Source: Escherichia phage KIT01. Taken from it: 64,000 nt of DNA. A program made the position numbers and the translations under genes. The notes beneath the pieces were generated by a model, which saw only the letters and a list, made by a program, of their open reading frames with translations, ran no database searches and was not told the origin of the DNA. Shown here in pieces: positions 23 through 52,356 of this stretch. Position 1 is the first letter of the stretch, and each line of letters starts with the position of its first letter. Location of the stretch: sequence record AP019521.1; one strand, written 5' to 3'.

Positions 23-352
23 CTAGAGTTGTACATCACTTCTGCAATATTCTAAAAATAATTTATCATTGTCTACAGTATCCCAACGACGCCAAGATGG
101 ATTCCAGACCAGAGCGTTGTCACCACAATCATTGAGCTTAAAATGGTCGTAGTACATAGCTATATGTCTAGTTTCGTCACCAGAGAACCCTAGTATAGGC
201 TCACCGTGGGTGTGATACATATGATGGTGCATTGAGAGGTCGCATTTGTAAAACATCTCACGTTTACCACGAACGAACAAGAAAGCTTGCCCATTCATAT
301 AGAATTCTTTATCTGTTTTCAAAAGATATTTGAATACTGAATCTTTGTGCAT
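23..352 (-). CDS. hypothetical His-rich small protein (start moved to internal ATG with AGGAGG RBS)
   Basis: ORF 23..367; internal Met at 352 preceded by taggaggactt; His cluster SMHHHMYHTHGE. Confidence 0.4.
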   Translation of the reverse strand: MHKDSVFKYLLKTDKEFYMNGQAFLFVRGKREMFYKCDLSMHHHMYHTHGEPILGFSGDETRHIAMYYDHFKLNDCGDNALVWNPSWRRWDTVDNDKLFLEYCRSDVQL

Positions 353-382
353 AAGTCCTCCTACCACATCCGTGTGGTTAAA

Positions 383-610
383 TTATTTTCCTAACGAAAC
401 ACGAGTAGGTTTTTTACCAAAATAGTCTTCATAAGAACCATCTAAACGTCCCGCTTTAGACCGACAATATGAATCGTACTTTTTATAATAAGTCATCTCA
501 GTATTATAACGTGGGTGTCTATCAGCCATAATAATACTTAGTGGCCAACCTTTGGCATAATCGCGAAGACCATTTATTTTACGAATGTATCGTTTTTTCA
601 ATTTTAGCAT
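383..610 (-). CDS. hypothetical small basic protein
   Basis: 75-aa ORF in compact minus-strand early gene run, overlaps stop of upstream gene. Confidence 0.3.
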   Translation of the reverse strand: MLKLKKRYIRKINGLRDYAKGWPLSIIMADRHPRYNTEMTYYKKYDSYCRSKAGRLDGSYEDYFGKKPTRVSLGK

Positions 611-828
611 GAGCTTGGGTACCAGATTTTACCATCGGCCTGAGCAACGAAGGTGCGACCAGCTTCTTCACCATAACAAGAGCTATTCAGCCAATCTTCG
701 AGACGAACTTCACCGTCATAATCGTCTAGCTCAACACCAAAATCCTGAGCAGAAGCCATATCTTTTACTTTCTTATACAGTGCGGCCAGTTCAAGTGCCG
801 CTTTTTCTAATTCATTAATATCAGACAT
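604..828 (-). CDS. small acidic protein, member 1 of tandem paralog family (C-terminal W-x-SSC)
   Basis: 74 aa, ends IWYPSSC; shares motif and junction sequence with next three ORFs. Confidence 0.5.
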   Translation of the reverse strand: MSDINELEKAALELAALYKKVKDMASAQDFGVELDDYDGEVRLEDWLNSSCYGEEAGRTFVAQADGKIWYPSSC

Positions 829-839
829 TTTTTATCACC

Positions 840-1049
840 TTAGCAAGACATAGAGGAGCTAAACCAGAAACCTTCACCTTCAGGAATACCGTAGTCATCA
901 CGGGCCCATTCATAATCATCATATTCCGGACTAGAAGCTGGAATATATTCTTCGCCACCAGCGTGGAAGTGCTGACCTGTTTCGTCAGCCACGGCCTGGC
1001 CTTTACGTACTAATTCGCGGATTTGTTTTTCAATTTCATCAATAGTCAT
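840..1049 (-). CDS. small acidic protein, paralog family member 2
   Basis: 69 aa, ends FWFSSSMSC; conserved 3-prime junction ttagca...gaggag. Confidence 0.5.
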   Translation of the reverse strand: MTIDEIEKQIRELVRKGQAVADETGQHFHAGGEEYIPASSPEYDDYEWARDDYGIPEGEGFWFSSSMSC

Positions 1050-11299: not shown

Positions 11300-11322
11300 T
11301 ATAAATATTAATATTATTTATA
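11300..11322. promoter_or_regulatory. divergent late promoters (TATAAATA on plus 11300-11307 for gp53; on minus 11315-11322 for gp4)
   Basis: two exact TATAAATA octamers in the 45-nt divergent intergenic region. Confidence 0.65.
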
Positions 11323-11334
11323 CTCGGAGGCCCT

Positions 11335-11937
11335 ATGCTCTTCTCATTTTTCGATCCTATCGAATACGAATCAAAAACAGTCAAGCCGGATTCGGGCTCA
11401 TTAACCAATACCGATGTACTGAGCGTGCCGATGACTGATATATTTAGAAATTATAAAGAATATTTTGATAAAGTGGCTAAAAATTATACACTAAAGACTT
11501 ATTACATCAACGGGGCCCCTCGTCCAGAAGAATTGGCCAATCAACTTTATGGCAACGTCCAATTATATTGGGTTTTATTGATGTGTAATAATATATACGA
11601 CCCTTATTACGGGTGGATTACAGGTCAAGAAGTTGCATATCAAGCTGCAATCCAAAGATATTCTACCGCAGGCGGTAATCAAGTTCTTTATCATGTTAAT
11701 GAAAAGGGTGAGAAATTCTGGAATCTAGTAAATACTCCGGAAAATCCTTATACTTGGTATGATAAGGGCGATACCGAAAAACGTTATCCTCAATATGAAG
11801 GTCCTTTGGCTGCAGTAGATATTTACGAGGACGCCATTCGTAAAAATGAATATAAGCGCGAAATAAAGATTATAGACCCTAATGACATCGAGTCCTTTGT
11901 TTCGGCATTAATCCGTGAAATGGAAAAGGCACTCTAA
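11335..11937 (+). CDS. 53: gp53 baseplate wedge protein
   Basis: 200 aa (T4 196); late promoter at 11300-11307; precedes gp5. Confidence 0.8.
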   Translation: MLFSFFDPIEYESKTVKPDSGSLTNTDVLSVPMTDIFRNYKEYFDKVAKNYTLKTYYINGAPRPEELANQLYGNVQLYWVLLMCNNIYDPYYGWITGQEVAYQAAIQRYSTAGGNQVLYHVNEKGEKFWNLVNTPENPYTWYDKGDTEKRYPQYEGPLAAVDIYEDAIRKNEYKREIKIIDPNDIESFVSALIREMEKAL

Positions 11938-12572
11938 TGTTTTATTATGTATATAAAATAACCAATAATATTAACGGCAAATTTTATATCGGGGCGCATA
12001 GTACATCAAATATGGATGATGGATATATGGGCTCAGGTAAATTAATTAAACGTGCCATACTAAAATATGGCATTGAAAATTTCAAAAAAGAAATATTAAA
12101 ATTTGTTGATTCCAAACAAGAAATGTATGAACTTGAAAAGGAACTTGTTGTTCTTAATGAAAACTCATACAATTTAAAACCAGGCGGCTCCGGTGGATTT
12201 TTAAAACATGATAACTTTAAAGGTCGAAAACATAGCCAGAAAACTAAAGATATTATGAGTGCAAATAACTCAGGTAAAAATAATCCCATGTATGGAAAAA
12301 AGCGAGACCAGCATGGAGTAAATGCACCAAATTATGGCAAAAAATGTTCAGAAGAGAAAAAGAAGATTCTTTCTGATAAGCTTAAAAAGCATTTTGAAAA
12401 TGAGCAGACAATAACTAAGAACATGGGGTTTATACCAACGTCGGTTGAAACCCGTTATGTGTCTCGACATATTAAAAAGTTAGGATTTGATTTTTACCAA
12501 TTCAATCGAAATATATGTGAGCATAATATTTCCATAGTTAAAAATATTTTAAAACAGAGGAAAGCGCTATGA
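11937..12572 (+). CDS. GIY-YIG homing endonuclease (Seg-like) with NUMOD3-type repeats
   Basis: YVYKITNNINGKFYIGAHS GIY-YIG motif, Y-x-GSG, repeated NPMYGKK/APNYGKK; inserted between 53 and 5, overlaps both by 1-4 nt. Confidence 0.8.
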   Translation: MFYYVYKITNNINGKFYIGAHSTSNMDDGYMGSGKLIKRAILKYGIENFKKEILKFVDSKQEMYELEKELVVLNENSYNLKPGGSGGFLKHDNFKGRKHSQKTKDIMSANNSGKNNPMYGKKRDQHGVNAPNYGKKCSEEKKKILSDKLKKHFENEQTITKNMGFIPTSVETRYVSRHIKKLGFDFYQFNRNICEHNISIVKNILKQRKAL

Positions 12573-14311
12573 TTAACATGTCTGATAATGTCAGTTGGTT
12601 CGTCGGCGTAGTTGAAGACCGTATGGACCCACTCAAACAAGGCCGAGTACGCGTGCGAGTATGGGGTATGCATCCATATGAAAAAGTGCAAGGTCCAGTA
12701 AAAGGCCTTCGTACAGAAGATTTACCATGGATGTCCGTATTAATGCCTACATCTTCTGCCTCTGTTTCAGGTATTCAAACCGCTATGACTGGTATGGTTC
12801 CTGGTACTCAGGTTTATGGGCACTTTCTTGATAAGTGGAAATTAAACGGACTTGTCCTTGGTACATACGGTTCCGCTTCAAGACAGAAGGCTAATCCTAA
12901 TGAAGGTTTTAGCGACCCGACAGGTCAATATCCGCTTTATTTAGGTAATGATGCTGCAGCACTAAACCGAGGCGGTGAAGTTGGATATGACGCCACTTCT
13001 AACGTAATACAAGATGCAAACACCGATGTAGGTATTAATCCTGACGGGTTAGATTTAAGTCAAGTCAAGCCTGACGATAATCCTAATTTCACAATAGAAA
13101 ACATGCTTCACCGTGATGAAGGGCTTAGACTGAAGGTATATTGGGACACCGAAGGTTATCCTACTATAGGTATAGGCCACCTTATTACGCCACAACCTAT
13201 TAGAGATATGAATCGAATAAACAAAATATTATCTAATCAGGTAGGACGAGAAGTTAAAGGTAACCCAGGTGCAATATCAATGGACGAGGCTTCTAAATTA
13301 TTCCAAGAAGACCTTAAAAAAGTCCAAAACGATATAGGTCGGCATAGTGTTGTAGGTCCTGTTTACAATAAAGAAAACCGTTCAAGACAAATGGCTCTTG
13401 AAAACATGGCTTTCCAAATGGGATTAGGTGGCTTGGCTAAATTCCGTGGAATGCTTAGTGCAATGTTAATAGGCGATTATAAAAAGGCATTTGAGGAAGC
13501 TCGTAATTCAGTATGGTTTAACCAAACTAAAGGCCGTGCATCAAGGGTATCAATGATTATCCTCACAGGTAACATGGAATCATATGGTATTATGGCCCCT
13601 AAAGAAAGGTCATTTAAAGGGCGTTCGTATAGAATGATTCAAACCTTTGCCGCACCTGCAAATTCAGACCCTGCCGATCCGTGGACCCCAGAAGATACAA
13701 GGATTTTGTTTAAAGAACCTGATTCTAGTTATAAAGGTGAATACCCATATGTCCAGACCATGCAAACTGAAGGTGGACACGTCCAAGAATTTGATAACAC
13801 CCCAGGGCAAGAACGTTATCGTTTAATCCATCCTACAGGTAGTTATGAAGAAGTTGCTCCTGATGGTCGCAAAACTTCTAAGACGGTAGCCGATGGGTAT
13901 TATATGACCCAAGGCGATTCTAATACTTATGTTGGTGGTAATAATAAAGTCAACATAGGTGGCGATGAAACCTATTATAATATGGCAAACGTCCGCCGTC
14001 AAACTGACGGGTCTGAAAGCATCCATATTCGTGGTAATGAAACCAAAACAGTAGAAGGTGATGGGACCCTTATTGTTAAAGGAAACGTCACAGTTCTTGT
14101 TGAGGGTAATGCTGATATAACTGTTAAAGGCGATGCCAAAACATTAGTTGAAGGCAACCATGACTATACAGTAAATGGAAACGTTAAATGGTCTGTAAAT
14201 GGAAACGTTGATATGACTGTTGCAGGTAATTGGTCTGAAACTATGTCGACTATGAGTTCAATTGCATCCGGTCAATATACTATTGATGGTTCGAGGATTG
14301 ACATTGGCTAA
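12569..14311 (+). CDS. 5: gp5 baseplate hub / cell-puncturing spike with lysozyme domain
   Basis: 580 aa (T4 575); FVGVVED..GRVRVRV OB-fold N-terminus, T4-lysozyme-like YWDTEGYPTIGIGH, C-terminal VxGxxxxxV beta-helix repeats. Confidence 0.95.
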   Translation: MINMSDNVSWFVGVVEDRMDPLKQGRVRVRVWGMHPYEKVQGPVKGLRTEDLPWMSVLMPTSSASVSGIQTAMTGMVPGTQVYGHFLDKWKLNGLVLGTYGSASRQKANPNEGFSDPTGQYPLYLGNDAAALNRGGEVGYDATSNVIQDANTDVGINPDGLDLSQVKPDDNPNFTIENMLHRDEGLRLKVYWDTEGYPTIGIGHLITPQPIRDMNRINKILSNQVGREVKGNPGAISMDEASKLFQEDLKKVQNDIGRHSVVGPVYNKENRSRQMALENMAFQMGLGGLAKFRGMLSAMLIGDYKKAFEEARNSVWFNQTKGRASRVSMIILTGNMESYGIMAPKERSFKGRSYRMIQTFAAPANSDPADPWTPEDTRILFKEPDSSYKGEYPYVQTMQTEGGHVQEFDNTPGQERYRLIHPTGSYEEVAPDGRKTSKTVADGYYMTQGDSNTYVGGNNKVNIGGDETYYNMANVRRQTDGSESIHIRGNETKTVEGDGTLIVKGNVTVLVEGNADITVKGDAKTLVEGNHDYTVNGNVKWSVNGNVDMTVAGNWSETMSTMSSIASGQYTIDGSRIDIG

Positions 14312-14345
14312 TATTTTACCTATGAGCACAGATTTAGGAGACTCC

Positions 14346-14843
14346 ATGGAAGGGGCCTCAATCGATGTTACGTTTACTGCTCAATTAGAAACAAACGAAA
14401 CATTAGTTGAAATAAATATAACAGAATATGAGCCTACAGAAGGCATTATTGTCGATGGAGCTCATTTATATGGAACCTACGAATCGGTATTTGGATTCTC
14501 TGAAGATGCCTTGAAATATCGATTAAACGATGAATTTAAAACAGCCGGTTCATGGAAAGACCTACCGGCCGACAGTAACACTCAATTATACCTCTGGAAA
14601 GCTCCTAGTAATCTTCAGAAGACGTTTTCTTACACAGTCACATTAACCTATGACTTTCAAGAAGAGTCATCAGGAGGTGATACAGGGAACTCAGGCGGTA
14701 GTAACTCTAGAGCTGGCGCAGAAACCGATCCACCTCCGGCTCCTGTAAGAAAAACCCTTACTAAGGTTTATACCAAGGTTATTGTCGGTAATTGGAGCAA
14801 GTGGGCTTCACAATTAAGAGAATACGTATACGCGAGGTCATAA
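14346..14843 (+). CDS. gp5.1-position hypothetical protein
   Basis: ORF 14262..14843 trimmed to ATG at 14346 behind AGGAG; lies between gp5 and gp5.4. Confidence 0.5.
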   Translation: MEGASIDVTFTAQLETNETLVEINITEYEPTEGIIVDGAHLYGTYESVFGFSEDALKYRLNDEFKTAGSWKDLPADSNTQLYLWKAPSNLQKTFSYTVTLTYDFQEESSGGDTGNSGGSNSRAGAETDPPPAPVRKTLTKVYTKVIVGNWSKWASQLREYVYARS

Positions 14844-15137
14844 ATGTCAGGCTTAAGTTATAACCAATGTGTAACGGCAGGTCATGAAGCATGGCCTCCT
14901 ACAGTAATAAACGCCACCCAAGGTAAAGTATTTACGGGTGGTATTCCTGTATTAGTAGATGGTGACCCTATTACAGAACATACAGAAATTAAAAAACCAT
15001 ATGAAACCCATGGTGGGGTAACCCAACCTAGAACATCAAAGGTATATGTTACAGGCAAAAAGGCTGTCCAGATGGCAGACCCTATTTCGTGCGGAGATAC
15101 AGTCGCACAAGCCTCATCTAAAGTATTCATAAAATAG
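14844..15137 (+). CDS. 5.4: gp5.4 PAAR-repeat spike tip protein
   Basis: 97 aa, same length as T4 gp5.4; position immediately before gp6. Confidence 0.75.
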
Positions 15138-27772: not shown

Positions 27773-27780
27773 TATAAATA
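27773..27780 (+). promoter_or_regulatory. late promoter TATAAATA upstream of gp13
   Basis: exact octamer about 22 nt before ATG. Confidence 0.65.
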
Positions 27781-28739: not shown

Positions 28740-29513
28740 ATGGCTACTTTCGATTCGAGTTTATTTGCCAAGCTGGAAAATAACACTGGTTATGCTAACA
28801 CGAACGAAACTGAAATAATGAATCCGTTCGTCAACTTCTACAAGCACGAGAATACCCAAACATTGGCTGATGCTTTAGTTGCTGAGTCTATTCAAATGCG
28901 TGGTATTGAGCTTTATTATATACCACGTGAATACGTTAATCCAGACCAGCTATTTGGCGAAGACCTTCAGAACAAATTTACTAAAGCCTGGAAATTTGCA
29001 GGTTATTTGGATTCCTTTGAAGGTTATTCCGGTGACAATACTTATTTCAGTAAGTTCGGTATGATGGTTAATGATGAAGTAACAATCACAATTAACCCTA
29101 ACCTTTTTAAACATCAATGCAATGGCACTGAACCTGTTTCAGGTGATTTGATTTATTTCCCAATGGACAACAGCCTATTCGAAATTAACTGGGTACAACC
29201 TTACGACCCGTTCTATCAAGTAGGAGCTAACGTCCAGCGTCGCATCACCGCTACCAAGTTCATTTACAATGGTGAAGAGCTTCGTCCTGAATTACAGAGA
29301 AATGAAGGTATTAATATTCCTGAGTTTAGTGAGCTTGATTTAATGCCTGTTAAGAATATCGACGGATTGGCTGATATCTCCGACATTCAATATGAAGAGG
29401 TCAATGAGATTAATGCTGAAGCGGCTGAATTCGTACATCCATATGTTGTAATTAATGGGCGAGGAGAGGATGCTCCTCCTACAGCATTTGATGATGCTTT
29501 TTTAGATGATTAA
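28740..29513 (+). CDS. 14: gp14 neck protein
   Basis: 257 aa (T4 256). Confidence 0.9.
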
Positions 29514-29522
29514 ATAACTTCT

Positions 29523-30110
29523 ATGATAGAAGAAAAAGTAGGATTATGGCTTGGGGATTTGACAGATGAATATCTGGCGGTGGTCTCCAAGCCACCTAAA
29601 ACAGAATACACCGAAAAACATCATATTCTCCCTAGGTCTTTATTTCCAGAATACGAAAACACGCCGGAAAATATAGTTTCTATAGATGTTTTAGACCATC
29701 TAGAAGCGCATGCAATCTTAGCAAAAACAAAAGACCCTAAAATGATTTTAGCCTTTTGGATTATGTTTAGTAGTTCTGAACGTAGAAATTTAAATTTATC
29801 TGAAGAAGAATTAAAAATAAAATACGAAGAAGCCCGTATAGAAATGAAGAGGGTTAAATCAGCCTGGGGCAAAACTCGTATAGGTGAATTGAATCCATTT
29901 TTTGGTAAACACCACGGAGAGTATGCCAAAAAGAGAGCCAGTGAAACCCACAAAGGCAAAAAGCTTTCAGCAGAACATACCATATCCTTTGGACAAGCCC
30001 AAACAGGTGTACCAAAGAGAAAAGTAGAGTGTCCACATTGCCACAAGATGATAGGATACCATCTTATAAATCGTTGGCATAATGATAATTGTAAAATGAG
30101 AGGTGAGTAA
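29523..30110 (+). CDS. HNH homing endonuclease (Mob-like) with C-terminal zinc-finger-like CPHCHK
   Basis: EKHHILPRS..N..HLEAH HNH motif; inserted between gp14 and gp15; stop overlaps gp15 start. Confidence 0.7.
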   Translation: MIEEKVGLWLGDLTDEYLAVVSKPPKTEYTEKHHILPRSLFPEYENTPENIVSIDVLDHLEAHAILAKTKDPKMILAFWIMFSSSERRNLNLSEEELKIKYEEARIEMKRVKSAWGKTRIGELNPFFGKHHGEYAKKRASETHKGKKLSAEHTISFGQAQTGVPKRKVECPHCHKMIGYHLINRWHNDNCKMRGE

Positions 30111-30972
30111 TGTTCGGTCACTTTTATAATAGTTCGCTACGTCGCTATATTGTTTTGATGGGTGATTTATTTTCCCATGTTCAAGTAGCACGTCAAAGAG
30201 AAGATACAGGGCTTAAATTTATTAAGGTTCCTATTACGTATGCTTCTAAAGAAAGATTTATGGCAAATTTAGGTAAATGGACGGCAGTACAGAATATTCC
30301 AAACCCTAATATGTCTCCTAAAGAACGAGCTGAACAAAAGGCTAAAGTGGAAACAGTTCTTCCACGTATGAACCTTCAAATGGTTGATATGCTTTATAAC
30401 TCACAATACAAAACGGCTCTTCAGAACAGAACACAAATTCAATTTGAGAACGGTGACCCGAGAAAACGAGTTAGCCAATATTCTCCTACTCCAGTAAAAA
30501 TGATTTTCGAACTGGGTATTTACACTAGAACCCAAGATGATATGTTCCAAATTGTGGAACAGATTATGCCTTATTTCCAACCTCACTTTAATACAACAAT
30601 CACTGAACTCTATACAAACGAGATTAAATTTGACCGTGATATTCGTATTGTGTTCCAGTCTATTGCAATGGACGAACAATTAGAAGGTGATACCACTTCA
30701 CGTCGTCGCTTAGAATGGTCTATGATGTTTGAGGTTAACGGATGGTTATATCCTCCTGTGAAGGAAATGGAAGGCGAAATTAAAACCATTTATCTTGATT
30801 TCTTTGCTAACTCAAAGGAACTCGCTCCCGAAGGTAATTTTGAATCGGTTGATAGCGAAGTGGTTCCTAGAGGTGTAGAAGAAAAAGAATGGGATGGAAG
30901 TTCCGTTCAAACATATTCACAAGATATTCCAGTGCCTGTCGAGCCAGCGCCTCCAGCACCAAGGAGAAACCC

Positions 30973-30976
<4 letters not shown>
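30110..30976 (+). CDS. 15: gp15 tail sheath stabiliser / tail completion
   Basis: 288 aa (T4 272). Confidence 0.9.
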
Positions 30977-50893: not shown

Positions 50894-51325
50894 TCATTTT
50901 TCACCTGCTTCAAATTTCCTGAGCTCCAACATATTCTTTAACGAGAACCCTCTAGCTTTGACTGCATCAAGTGCTGAACTACAAAAGTCCTGTAATAAAG
51001 CCCAATACTGAATTGATGTATCGATTTTAATTACACTAGAATCCGCAGCCATAACGGTCTTTAATTCAGACTTCTCATATTGGTCCATACAAACCTCATC
51101 ACCAGGCTCTCCACGTCCCGTGTAGAAATCTAATCGCTTCTTAAGTGAGGTCTTTTTCTGGATTTCTAATCTCATTATTTCTTTCTTGCAATTCGTATAC
51201 AGCCTTAGCCATTTGCTGTGCAGCAAAACGTTGTTCTGTACTTCATATTGTAAACGAGTTCCATCAATCTTTAAATCCTCGTCTAATGCATCTTGAAACG
51301 ACTCCAACTTGTACTCAATTTCCAT
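50894..51325 (-). CDS. uvsY: UvsY recombination mediator
   Basis: 143 aa; KLQYE..NNV.L.SKWL, LDFYTGRG, FCS.ALDA.K.RGF match recalled T4 UvsY. Confidence 0.9.
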   Translation of the reverse strand: MEIEYKLESFQDALDEDLKIDGTRLQYEVQNNVLLHSKWLRLYTNCKKEIMRLEIQKKTSLKKRLDFYTGRGEPGDEVCMDQYEKSELKTVMAADSSVIKIDTSIQYWALLQDFCSSALDAVKARGFSLKNMLELRKFEAGEK

Positions 51326-51908
51326 TGTATTTCCTCATAAAAGTAATAACCATACCATCATACCACACTTCCGGATATTTGTGTTCTATTGCTATAGTTC
51401 TAAACCTTCTAGCTTTAGGCATTCCAGATTCTACCCATAATGAATACAGTTCATCCTCTTTATCCCAAGGTATATTTTTACTTCGTCTGTTTGGCCTTGG
51501 TACATCTTTAGCCCAATGGACCTGATGCTTGAATTTTTCCTTCATTGTTTTAGATTGCCGTTCTCTACCTATCTTAGTAGAAGGATTTTTCTTTCCTAAC
51601 ATAGGATGAACTTCCATTAATTGCCCGCCGACACCGCCTTTAGCTATATTAACACAATTACTAAATTTAATTTTGGCTTCGCCAACTAAGAGTTCTTCAA
51701 ACTCAGCATTCAATTCTAGGGTAGGTTGAACGGACAGAATATGTTTTACAAATCTAGTATTTGGGTTTTTCTTGGCAGATTTTATAAAAATACCAGACCC
51801 TAAATAACTATTATTTAGAGAAGTGCTGGTGTGCTTACCAAAATAGACCCAGTAATTATTATCTGTAAATATTTCTGTCATATAACAATAATGTATTTTA
51901 TCTCTCAT
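51315..51908 (-). CDS. putative GIY-YIG-type homing endonuclease (Seg-like, degenerate)
   Basis: ORF 51315..51941 trimmed to ATG at 51908; YCY..(8)..YWVYFGKHTSTS..YLGSG parallels GIY..YIGAHSTS..YMGSG of the endonuclease at 11937. Confidence 0.5.
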   Translation of the reverse strand: MRDKIHYCYMTEIFTDNNYWVYFGKHTSTSLNNSYLGSGIFIKSAKKNPNTRFVKHILSVQPTLELNAEFEELLVGEAKIKFSNCVNIAKGGVGGQLMEVHPMLGKKNPSTKIGRERQSKTMKEKFKHQVHWAKDVPRPNRRSKNIPWDKEDELYSLWVESGMPKARRFRTIAIEHKYPEVWYDGMVITFMRKYNGN

Positions 51909-51966
51909 CGCATGTTTCCTGTGTAATAACCATAGGACCATTATACACTATTCATTTGAACAGCAA

Positions 51967-52356
51967 TTAACCACTCTGTGAGAGCTGGATTCTAATTTGC
52001 TCTAATGTATCAGGGTCATCAACTATACTAAACTGAACCGTTACTATAATCGAGTTATCATCGTACACGGGTGTCACACCTACAGCTAGAGCAGAAATTC
52101 TAGGTTCGAAGTTCCGCACGGCGGAAACTATATTACGCTTAATGGTATCCGTGATTAATGGGGTGATATTCTCAAACAATTGGTTACTGATGTCACAACC
52201 AAATTCCGGCATAAAAGGGCGTGAACCTTTGCGAGTAGTAATAATGCCTAACAAACTATTTTTTACTGCACGAGCACCTGTAGCTTTAGCGACGTCTCTA
52301 TTCCAAGACGTCCTCATTTCAGGGTCTAAATCTGAATACATTTTATTGATATTCAT
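51967..52356 (-). CDS. 25: gp25 baseplate wedge (gpW-like)
   Basis: 129 aa (T4 132). Confidence 0.9.
   Translation of the reverse strand: MNINKMYSDLDPEMRTSWNRDVAKATGARAVKNSLLGIITTRKGSRPFMPEFGCDISNQLFENITPLITDTIKRNIVSAVRNFEPRISALAVGVTPVYDDNSIIVTVQFSIVDDPDTLEQIRIQLSQSG

Follow-up and report, generated by a model that had tools for sequence, protein, structure and literature searches.

What is a nuclease gene doing between two baseplate genes of a T4-like phage, and how did it come to be there? The question is raised by a 64,000-nucleotide (nt) stretch of Escherichia phage KIT01 (AP019521.1), here called the window, which comes from a Dhakavirus (a JS98-like relative of T4) and has best matches that are 93-96% identical over 25 kb. 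In a six-frame list of its open reading frames (ORFs), an intact frame of 211 amino acids (aa) that begins with ATG stands at the junction of gene 53, which encodes a baseplate wedge subunit, and gene 5, which encodes the baseplate hub and tail lysozyme. We conclude that this gene, here called seg, is very probably a Seg-type gene, as in T4, for a free-standing homing endonuclease with a GIY-YIG nuclease domain, and that this Dhakavirus very probably acquired it through homing during co-infection with a Gaprivervirus-type phage. We found no paper in the literature that describes it.

The gene is fitted closely into its surroundings. Its start overlaps the gene 53 stop by 1 nt (..CTC TAATG..) and its stop overlaps the gene 5 start by 4 nt (ATGA, within ..CTATGA..), in agreement with a sequence-only reading of the locus, which had described overlaps of a few nucleotides with both flanking structural genes. 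The Shine-Dalgarno sequence of gene 5 (GAGG, 8 nt 5' of its start) is located in the 3' end of seg. The GC content of seg is 30.3%, versus 37.5% and 41.2% for the flanking genes. T4 was said to have no gene at this position, and it has none: its genes 53 and 5 overlap by 17 nt without an intervening gene, its nearest seg gene is segC, 2.2 kb downstream between 5.1 and 5.3, and the list of T4 homing endonuclease sites has no entry at 53/5 (PMC2988022, Table 1). No Rfam match to a group I intron was obtained between 10500 and 14500 at expectation values (E) up to 1, and because no RNA family matches, the gene appears to lie outside a group I intron and its description as free-standing holds. Domain content, similarity to Seg proteins and the absence of intron RNA together point to a free-standing Seg-type GIY-YIG endonuclease gene.

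The encoded protein matches PHROG 314, 'homing endonuclease' (E 5e-49), and passes the curated Pfam cut-offs for NUMOD3 (aa 96-125, E 1.3e-12), SegE_GIY-YIG (PF19835, 27.0 bits against a cut-off of 25) and GIY-YIG (PF01541, 24.3 bits against 22.6). The NCBIfam model of group I intron endonucleases (TIGR01453) gives 52.5 bits, under its cut-off of 56.05. The sequence-only reading had called the GIY-YIG motif canonical and had listed NUMOD3-like repeats. Each description stands in part: the second half of the motif is Y-I-G, but the first is Y-V-Y, as in T4 SegB, and not G-I-Y; one NUMOD3 motif is significant, but the second is weak (Table 1). Of the catalytic positions, both conserved tyrosines, the Glu and the Asn are retained, and Y6, Y17, E67 and N79 are invariant among 30 homologues. 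Y6, Y17 and N79 align with Y6, Y17 and N90 of I-TevI, and E67 falls one column off I-TevI E75, in a region where the alignment register is uncertain. An AlphaFold (AF2) model built on the 30-homologue alignment has predicted local distance difference test (pLDDT) values of 93-97 over aa 1-88, and its best Foldseek matches in the PDB are 1mk0 and 1ln0, the catalytic domain of I-TevI (probability 0.99-1.00, E 7e-3). A PDB search with the single protein sequence returned nothing relevant, and the link to I-TevI comes from the fold search only. The model is poor over aa 156-211 (pLDDT below 50). No family was matched by the last ~60 aa. When 50,697 phage records were searched in translation with an E limit of 1, the C-terminal 60 aa turned up only in the five phages that carry the gene.

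The gene is far from universal at this junction. Among 102 related records that match the gp53-seg-gp5 stretch it is present in five, always at the 53/5 junction, and a sensitive DNA search with seg alone returned the same five phages at full length. The carriers hold two alleles. Those in the Gapriverviruses PSD2001, P479 and P896 have 99.4-99.7% nucleotide identity to the window over the gene and 100% identical proteins, annotated 'hypothetical protein' (UIS66035.1, QWQ55977.1 and UHS65386.1, respectively). Those in the Dhakaviruses IME540 and FB have 84% nucleotide identity to the window seg, and the IME540 protein (QJA42683.1, annotated 'putative Seg-like homing endonuclease') is 88% identical. 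In IME540 and in the Gapriverviruses alike the junction and the boundaries are those of the window gene. The exact 211-aa protein is found on 15 contigs in public assemblies, and among the matches listed (10 of the 15 contigs) seg lies between gp53 and gp5 in 10 of 10. The seven metagenomic contigs have Gaprivervirus-type backbones; no Dhakavirus backbone other than that of the window was found to carry the 'Gaprivervirus' allele. Empty 53/5 junctions also occur in Gapriverviruses (DK-13 and UPEC01). IMG/VR contains no close relative of the protein (the best is 58% identical over the N-terminus) and only four matches to the junction, at least three of which are isolate genomes already in the comparison.

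The gene and its flanks have different relationships. Over 621 nt the window seg is 100% identical to those of PSD2001 and P479, whereas gp53 is 70.6% and 72.9% identical and gp5 84.2% and 84.8% identical, respectively. In a 100-nt sliding comparison with the Gaprivervirus carriers, identity drops to 65-85% in the flanking genes and is 100% in the gene. P479 gp53 is itself 99.8% identical to that of DK-13, which has an empty site, and only 88-92% identical to those of other carriers. Across 11 carriers of this allele gp53 differs by up to ~12% and the seg copies are at most 6 of 636 nt apart, which suggests that the same short DNA piece entered many backbones recently. The proposal that seg is a mobile element is thus well supported by its sporadic presence, by its 100% identity across two genera whose flanks are 15-29% different, and by breakpoints within 30 nt of the insert.

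Where the gene is lacking, the junction takes one of two forms. In type A (..GAG AAA GCC CTC TAATG ATT AAC..; CTCTAATG) the overlap is 1 nt and the junction is 3 nt longer than in type B (..CTA TGA TTA A.., with CTATGA or TTATGA), where the overlap is 4 nt. Type A is found in 44 records, all of them Dhakavirus (~90% of Dhakavirus records), and Dhakavirus type B in four records only, which represent three phages (005, E33 and ABTNLS3). MX01 and JS98 have type A junctions and DK-13 a type B one. Type B was seen at each of the four empty sites examined in Gaprivervirus-like phages, and type-B right ends are found in 13 of the 13 occupied loci examined, in both alleles and both genera.

What exactly was transferred? 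Between 11900 and 12562 the window and P479 do not differ by a single base, and to either side of these limits they diverge. Deletion of 11928..12562 (635 nt) restores the empty type B junction of the Dhakaviruses E33, 005 and ABTNLS3. After this deletion there are 0 differences from E33 over 11776-11903 and 12563-12603, and the leftover differences (at 11904, 11907, 11913, 11914 and 11916) are all synonymous and all of the Gaprivervirus donor type, as in P479. The silent co-conversion tract on the gene 53 side is 13-28 nt long, and no co-conversion is detectable against E33 on the gene 5 side. The transferred patch thus amounts to ~660 nt, made up of the 635-nt insert and up to 28 nt of flanking gene 53 sequence, with no detectable contribution on the side of gene 5.

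The insert contains a substitute end for gene 53 (GAA AAG GCA CTC TAA, E-K-A-L-stop) and the body of seg. The seg ORF then runs through the recipient's former gene 53 codons (AAA GCG CTA TGA, K-A-L-stop) and overlaps the gene 5 start. The final ~10 nt of seg agree with the local native junction in other carriers as well: L096 has the seg end of Yersinia phage P8, down to the rare GATAGTGT variant, the end in PSD2001 matches L110, and that of P479 is DK-13-like. Because the seg ends match local native junctions, the right-hand crossovers of all lineages fall right at the border of the insert. Seg and the gene 53 tail share their last 10-13 nt only, because this is the recipient's own flank.

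Other accounts of the junction were rejected. That the whole Seg C-terminal tail is a duplicated gene 53 tail fails because the similarity is no higher than in shuffles, as protein or as DNA. The two 15-nt insert ends match at 8 of 15 positions (p about 0.03), which is not striking. A prior IME540-type allele in the ancestor of the window, followed by allele replacement, was set aside, as the left-flank haplotype is common to many empty-site Dhakaviruses and E33 explains both flanks. Nor is the junction of phage 005 a deletion scar of a window-like carrier, as 005 lacks the donor-type bases at 11904-11916.

Could the gene have spread passively, as neutral or mildly useful cargo moved by the frequent ordinary recombination of co-infecting T4-like phages, with no cutting of its own? 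There is strong mosaicism near the locus in the genomes of both Dhakavirus and Gaprivervirus, and plain recombination acts here, as is shown by a crossover inside seg in one hybrid contig (L106, described below). However, both crossovers lie within 30 nt of the 635-nt insert, repeatedly and in many backbones, a placement not to be expected of random recombination. Passive spread also leaves unexplained the near-zero diversity of seg across flanks that are 10-29% different, and the nuclease residues are strongly conserved, with a ratio of nonsynonymous to synonymous divergence (dN/dS) of 0.034 in the N-terminal half. We therefore consider passive spread unlikely.

The hybrid locus is on a 1049-nt Logan contig (SRR32022449). 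Its gp53 flank and the first part of its seg are IME540-like (Dhakavirus), and the remainder of seg and the start of gp5 are Gaprivervirus-like. This intergenus crossover inside seg shows that the shared gene can itself act as a crossover point between genera, and the hybrid fits the idea that nuclease genes are boundary markers of exchange (PMC10055350).

In the homing explanation that we prefer, the N-terminal nuclease, tethered by NUMOD3 and the private C-terminal DNA-binding region, would cut the uninterrupted 53/5 junction of endonuclease-free relatives, and the seg-carrying genome would then serve as the repair template from which the 635-nt insert and a few flanking bases are copied in. 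Co-converted bases must span the interval from the cut to the insertion point. As they are on the gene 53 side only and within 28 nt, the cut is predicted to fall probably in the last ~30 bp of gene 53, at type-B junctions. The sequence-only reading had put the probable cleavage site in the gp5 or gp53 gene of endonuclease-free relatives, and the shortness of the tract, on the gene 53 side, is consistent with this. The insert would cost the phage nothing, since it supplies a replacement gene 53 end (E-K-A-L-stop), and by ending in the original gene 53 codons and stop, seg would preserve both the ATGA overlap and the GAGG site for gene 5. Intronless homing is established for the T4 seg genes (PMC2988022) and for SegB in particular (PMC2330249). 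The enzyme is most likely active or recently active.

Several points weigh against this explanation. Enzymatic cleavage, the cut position and drive (biased inheritance in mixed infection) are what we infer from the sequence. The segment of I-TevI that contains Arg27 has no aligned counterpart in Seg-type proteins, and sequence alignment identifies no equivalent of this residue in the seg protein, where K35 and R39 are putative candidates only for its role; the same is equally true of the active T4 proteins SegA, B, C and E. The C-terminal third combines a low-confidence model with the lack of any known DNA-binding family. Finally, much longer co-conversion tracts are reported for the free-standing endonucleases of T4, which often cut at a distance from their genes (PMC2988022), and the short tracts seen here could reflect later recombination or selection that trimmed the flanks.

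The gene is under purifying selection. The window and IME540 alleles differ at 102 of 633 nt but in only 12% of residues, and dN/dS between them is 0.085 overall, with a synonymous divergence (dS) of 0.90. By half, the ratio for the catalytic part is the 0.034 given above, and for the DNA-binding part it is 0.079 with dS saturated at 1.65. These low values indicate that both alleles have long been kept functional. The FB copy (L006 3603..4240) has a +1 frameshift and an annotated product truncated to 170 aa. Decay of this sort is to be expected as one stage in the life cycle of homing elements.

Decay therefore occurs at this locus, and the window gene might be an inactive relic, transferred recently but encoding an endonuclease that has stopped cutting; the lack of an identified Arg27 equivalent is consistent with this. 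Yet its ORF is intact, the identical protein is found on 15 contigs, every family-invariant residue is kept, and very recent spread to several backbones implies recent activity. We regard a relic as highly improbable. Strong purifying selection on both alleles would also be expected of a domesticated gene, one kept for a benefit to the phage (the exclusion of competitors' markers or genomes, or the regulation of genes 53 and 5) and not for its own spread. Seg lies inside an essential late operon and supplies the gene 5 ribosome-binding site, and T4 seg genes have been tied to marker exclusion (PMC2988022). But there are 44 + 4 Dhakavirus records with empty junctions, most relatives thrive without seg, and the FB copy is frameshifted; moreover, exclusion of competitor markers is the same mechanism as homing and hence no alternative to it. 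Domestication seems to us quite unlikely.

If homing is the process at work, are its targets changing? The 53/5 junction may host an ongoing contest between endonuclease and target, in which type A is either a cleavage-resistant allele of the homing site that has nearly swept through Dhakavirus or the scar of a past gene loss. We offer this tentatively, as a possibility that is somewhat doubtful; type A might simply be ancestral. The enzyme would also be set apart by a cut within ~30 bp of its insertion point, which resembles the habit of intron-encoded enzymes more than that of the T4 Seg proteins investigated to date, and by the use of a C-terminal DNA-binding module without known relatives.

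How is seg expressed? The T4-type late promoter motif TATAAATA occurs 18 times in the window, versus 7.6 expected. Two copies stand back to back within the 45-nt gap of the divergent genes 4 and 53. On the + strand there is no further copy between the one at 11300-11307 and position 27773, from which it follows that gp53, seg and gp5 are probably co-transcribed late. Late transcription with genes 53 and 5, together with translation that would be coupled to the gene 53 stop (TAATG), is the simplest reading. A dedicated seg promoter was considered and rejected: sigma-70-like sites are at background (15 found, 14.5 expected), and no TATAAATA lies between gp53 and 27773. Several T4 endonuclease genes have a ribosome-binding site hidden by an RNA hairpin. 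A hairpin that masks the site of seg or gp5 was likewise rejected, as the folds are no better than those of shuffles (z -1.2 and -0.9).

Table 1. Features of the gene 53/5 locus, in window coordinates.
Feature	Position	Strand	Evidence or remark
seg-like ORF, 211 aa, probable free-standing GIY-YIG homing endonuclease gene	11937..12572	+	ORF list, Pfam, PHROG, T4 Seg comparison
Gene 53 (baseplate wedge subunit)	11335..11937	+	Pfam Phage_gp53, E 3.4e-73
Gene 5 (baseplate hub and tail lysozyme)	12569..14311	+	Gp5_OB 3e-61, lysozyme, Gp5_C repeats
GIY-YIG catalytic domain, aa 1-88; Y6, Y17, E67, N79 at family-invariant positions	11937..12200	+	Pfam, 30-homologue alignment, AF2, Foldseek
NUMOD3 DNA-binding motif, aa 96-125	12222..12311	+	Pfam
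Weak second NUMOD3 copy, aa 127-143	12315..12365	+	16.1 bits, under cut-off
C-terminal ~60 aa, no known family; presumed target-specific DNA-binding module	12390..12569	+	Family and translated searches, pLDDT below 50
Insert, 635 nt, relative to type B junctions (E33, 005, ABTNLS3)	11928..12562	+	Boundaries ambiguous by ~3 nt within A-runs
Co-conversion tract, gene 53 3' end, five synonymous differences from empty-site Dhakaviruses	11904..11927	+	Donor-type match (P479)
Last seg codons (..A GCG CTA TGA), the recipient's original gene 53 terminus and stop	12563..12572	+	Identical to E33, 005, ABTNLS3 junction
Ends of the occupied locus in the window, compared with empty junctions in L003, L107, L007, L118	11923..11937 and 12558..12572		
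T4-type late promoter motif TATAAATA, 5' of gp53	11300..11307	+	Motif search
Second TATAAATA copy, divergent, facing gp4	11315..11322	-	Motif search

Other endonuclease-like genes occur in the window and around this region in relatives. A second homing-endonuclease-like gene in the window, of the HNH/Mob type (195 aa, 29523..30110, + strand), matches PHROG 655 at 8e-39 and is 39% identical to parts of T4 MobB, MobC and MobE. It stands between gp14 (28740..29513) and gp15 (30110..30976), where T4 has no gene. The third candidate is a divergent Seg-like GIY-YIG ORF of 208 aa (51315..51941, - strand) between gp25 (51967..52356) and uvsY (50894..51325); in tblastn it has 29% identity to T4 SegE (E 7e-11) and matches SegC at E 5e-10, and it has no PHROG match at 1e-5. 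The gp3-gp2-gp4 junctions are variably occupied in relatives (L001 1766..2413, L004 1757..2404 and 277..936, L007 2674..3402 and L120 1..600, all on the - strand). Between gp2 and gp4, PSD2001 and P479 encode an endonuclease of 215 aa that shows 62% identity to the window Seg over its first 61 aa; P479 has a further mobile endonuclease, located between gp3 and gp2. The gp2/gp4 interval of DK-13 is occupied by a 242-aa ORF, and in E33 an intron-like endonuclease adjoins gp2. None of these is present in the window. In FB, downstream of the frameshifted seg, the C-terminus of gp5 is divergent (45-60% identity to the window over 14100-15000) and a 687-aa ORF (L006 6025..8088) takes the place of the gp5.1/gp5.4 region.

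What does the locus add? Elements of this kind have been thoroughly studied; this one is an ordinary example, and the understanding of the mechanism is unchanged. New are the 53/5 site, the private C-terminal module and an unusually clean cross-genus record. With an E33-like recipient, a P479-like donor, and an insert and tract that can be read from public genomes, the locus would be a natural record of homing between phage genera at nucleotide resolution. It also indicates how an element may enter a tightly coupled essential operon free of cost, by bringing a spare gene 53 end and borrowing the original for seg. Type A and type B junctions, together with two alleles whose DNA-binding halves have diverged, may provide an easy experimental system for target specificity and resistance.

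So, how does seg compare with known endonucleases? The sequence-only reading had called it Seg-like, which the T4 proteins confirm. The closest is SegB, which is 57.5% identical over aa 1-109 (E 5e-36), shares the N-terminus MFYY.YKITN, is likewise free-standing and is of similar size (221 aa, against 211 aa). The C-terminal halves of the two proteins are unrelated, with a weak 41-aa match only (E 0.37), and SegB sits at tRNA-Arg/tRNA-Ile in the tRNA gene cluster and not at a 53/5 junction. SegB activity has been shown for T4, whereas the window gene is known from its sequence. SegB cuts a 27-bp site and is inherited at nearly 100% in T4 x T2L crosses (PMC2330249). Identity of the GIY-YIG domain to the other T4 proteins is 55.6% for SegD, 49.5% for SegE, 47.6% for SegC and 45.1% for SegA. 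These four and the window protein alike belong to the Pfam SegE_GIY-YIG family and are encoded between conserved genes. A published table counts SegA, B, C and E among the active enzymes and gives the activity of SegD as not determined (PMC2988022, Table 1). SegC is encoded in the same T4 gene neighbourhood as 53/5, but no T4 Seg gene is at 53/5 itself.

I-TevI, encoded by the intron of T4 td, and the window protein have the same catalytic fold with aligned Tyr and Asn positions. Each is built of modules joined by a linker of the NUMOD3 type, but identity is only ~22-28%, which is marginal by sequence. Unlike I-TevI, the window gene has no intron, and its product has neither a zinc finger nor a recognisable helix-turn-helix. 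The free-standing enzymes of T4 often make distant cuts with long co-conversion (PMC2988022), whereas the tract beside the window gene is at most 28 nt. The cut implied by this tract would lie near the insertion point, as for intron-encoded enzymes such as I-TevI. By its sequence, the window gene is best placed in the T4 Seg family, closest to SegB, at a site that T4 does not use.

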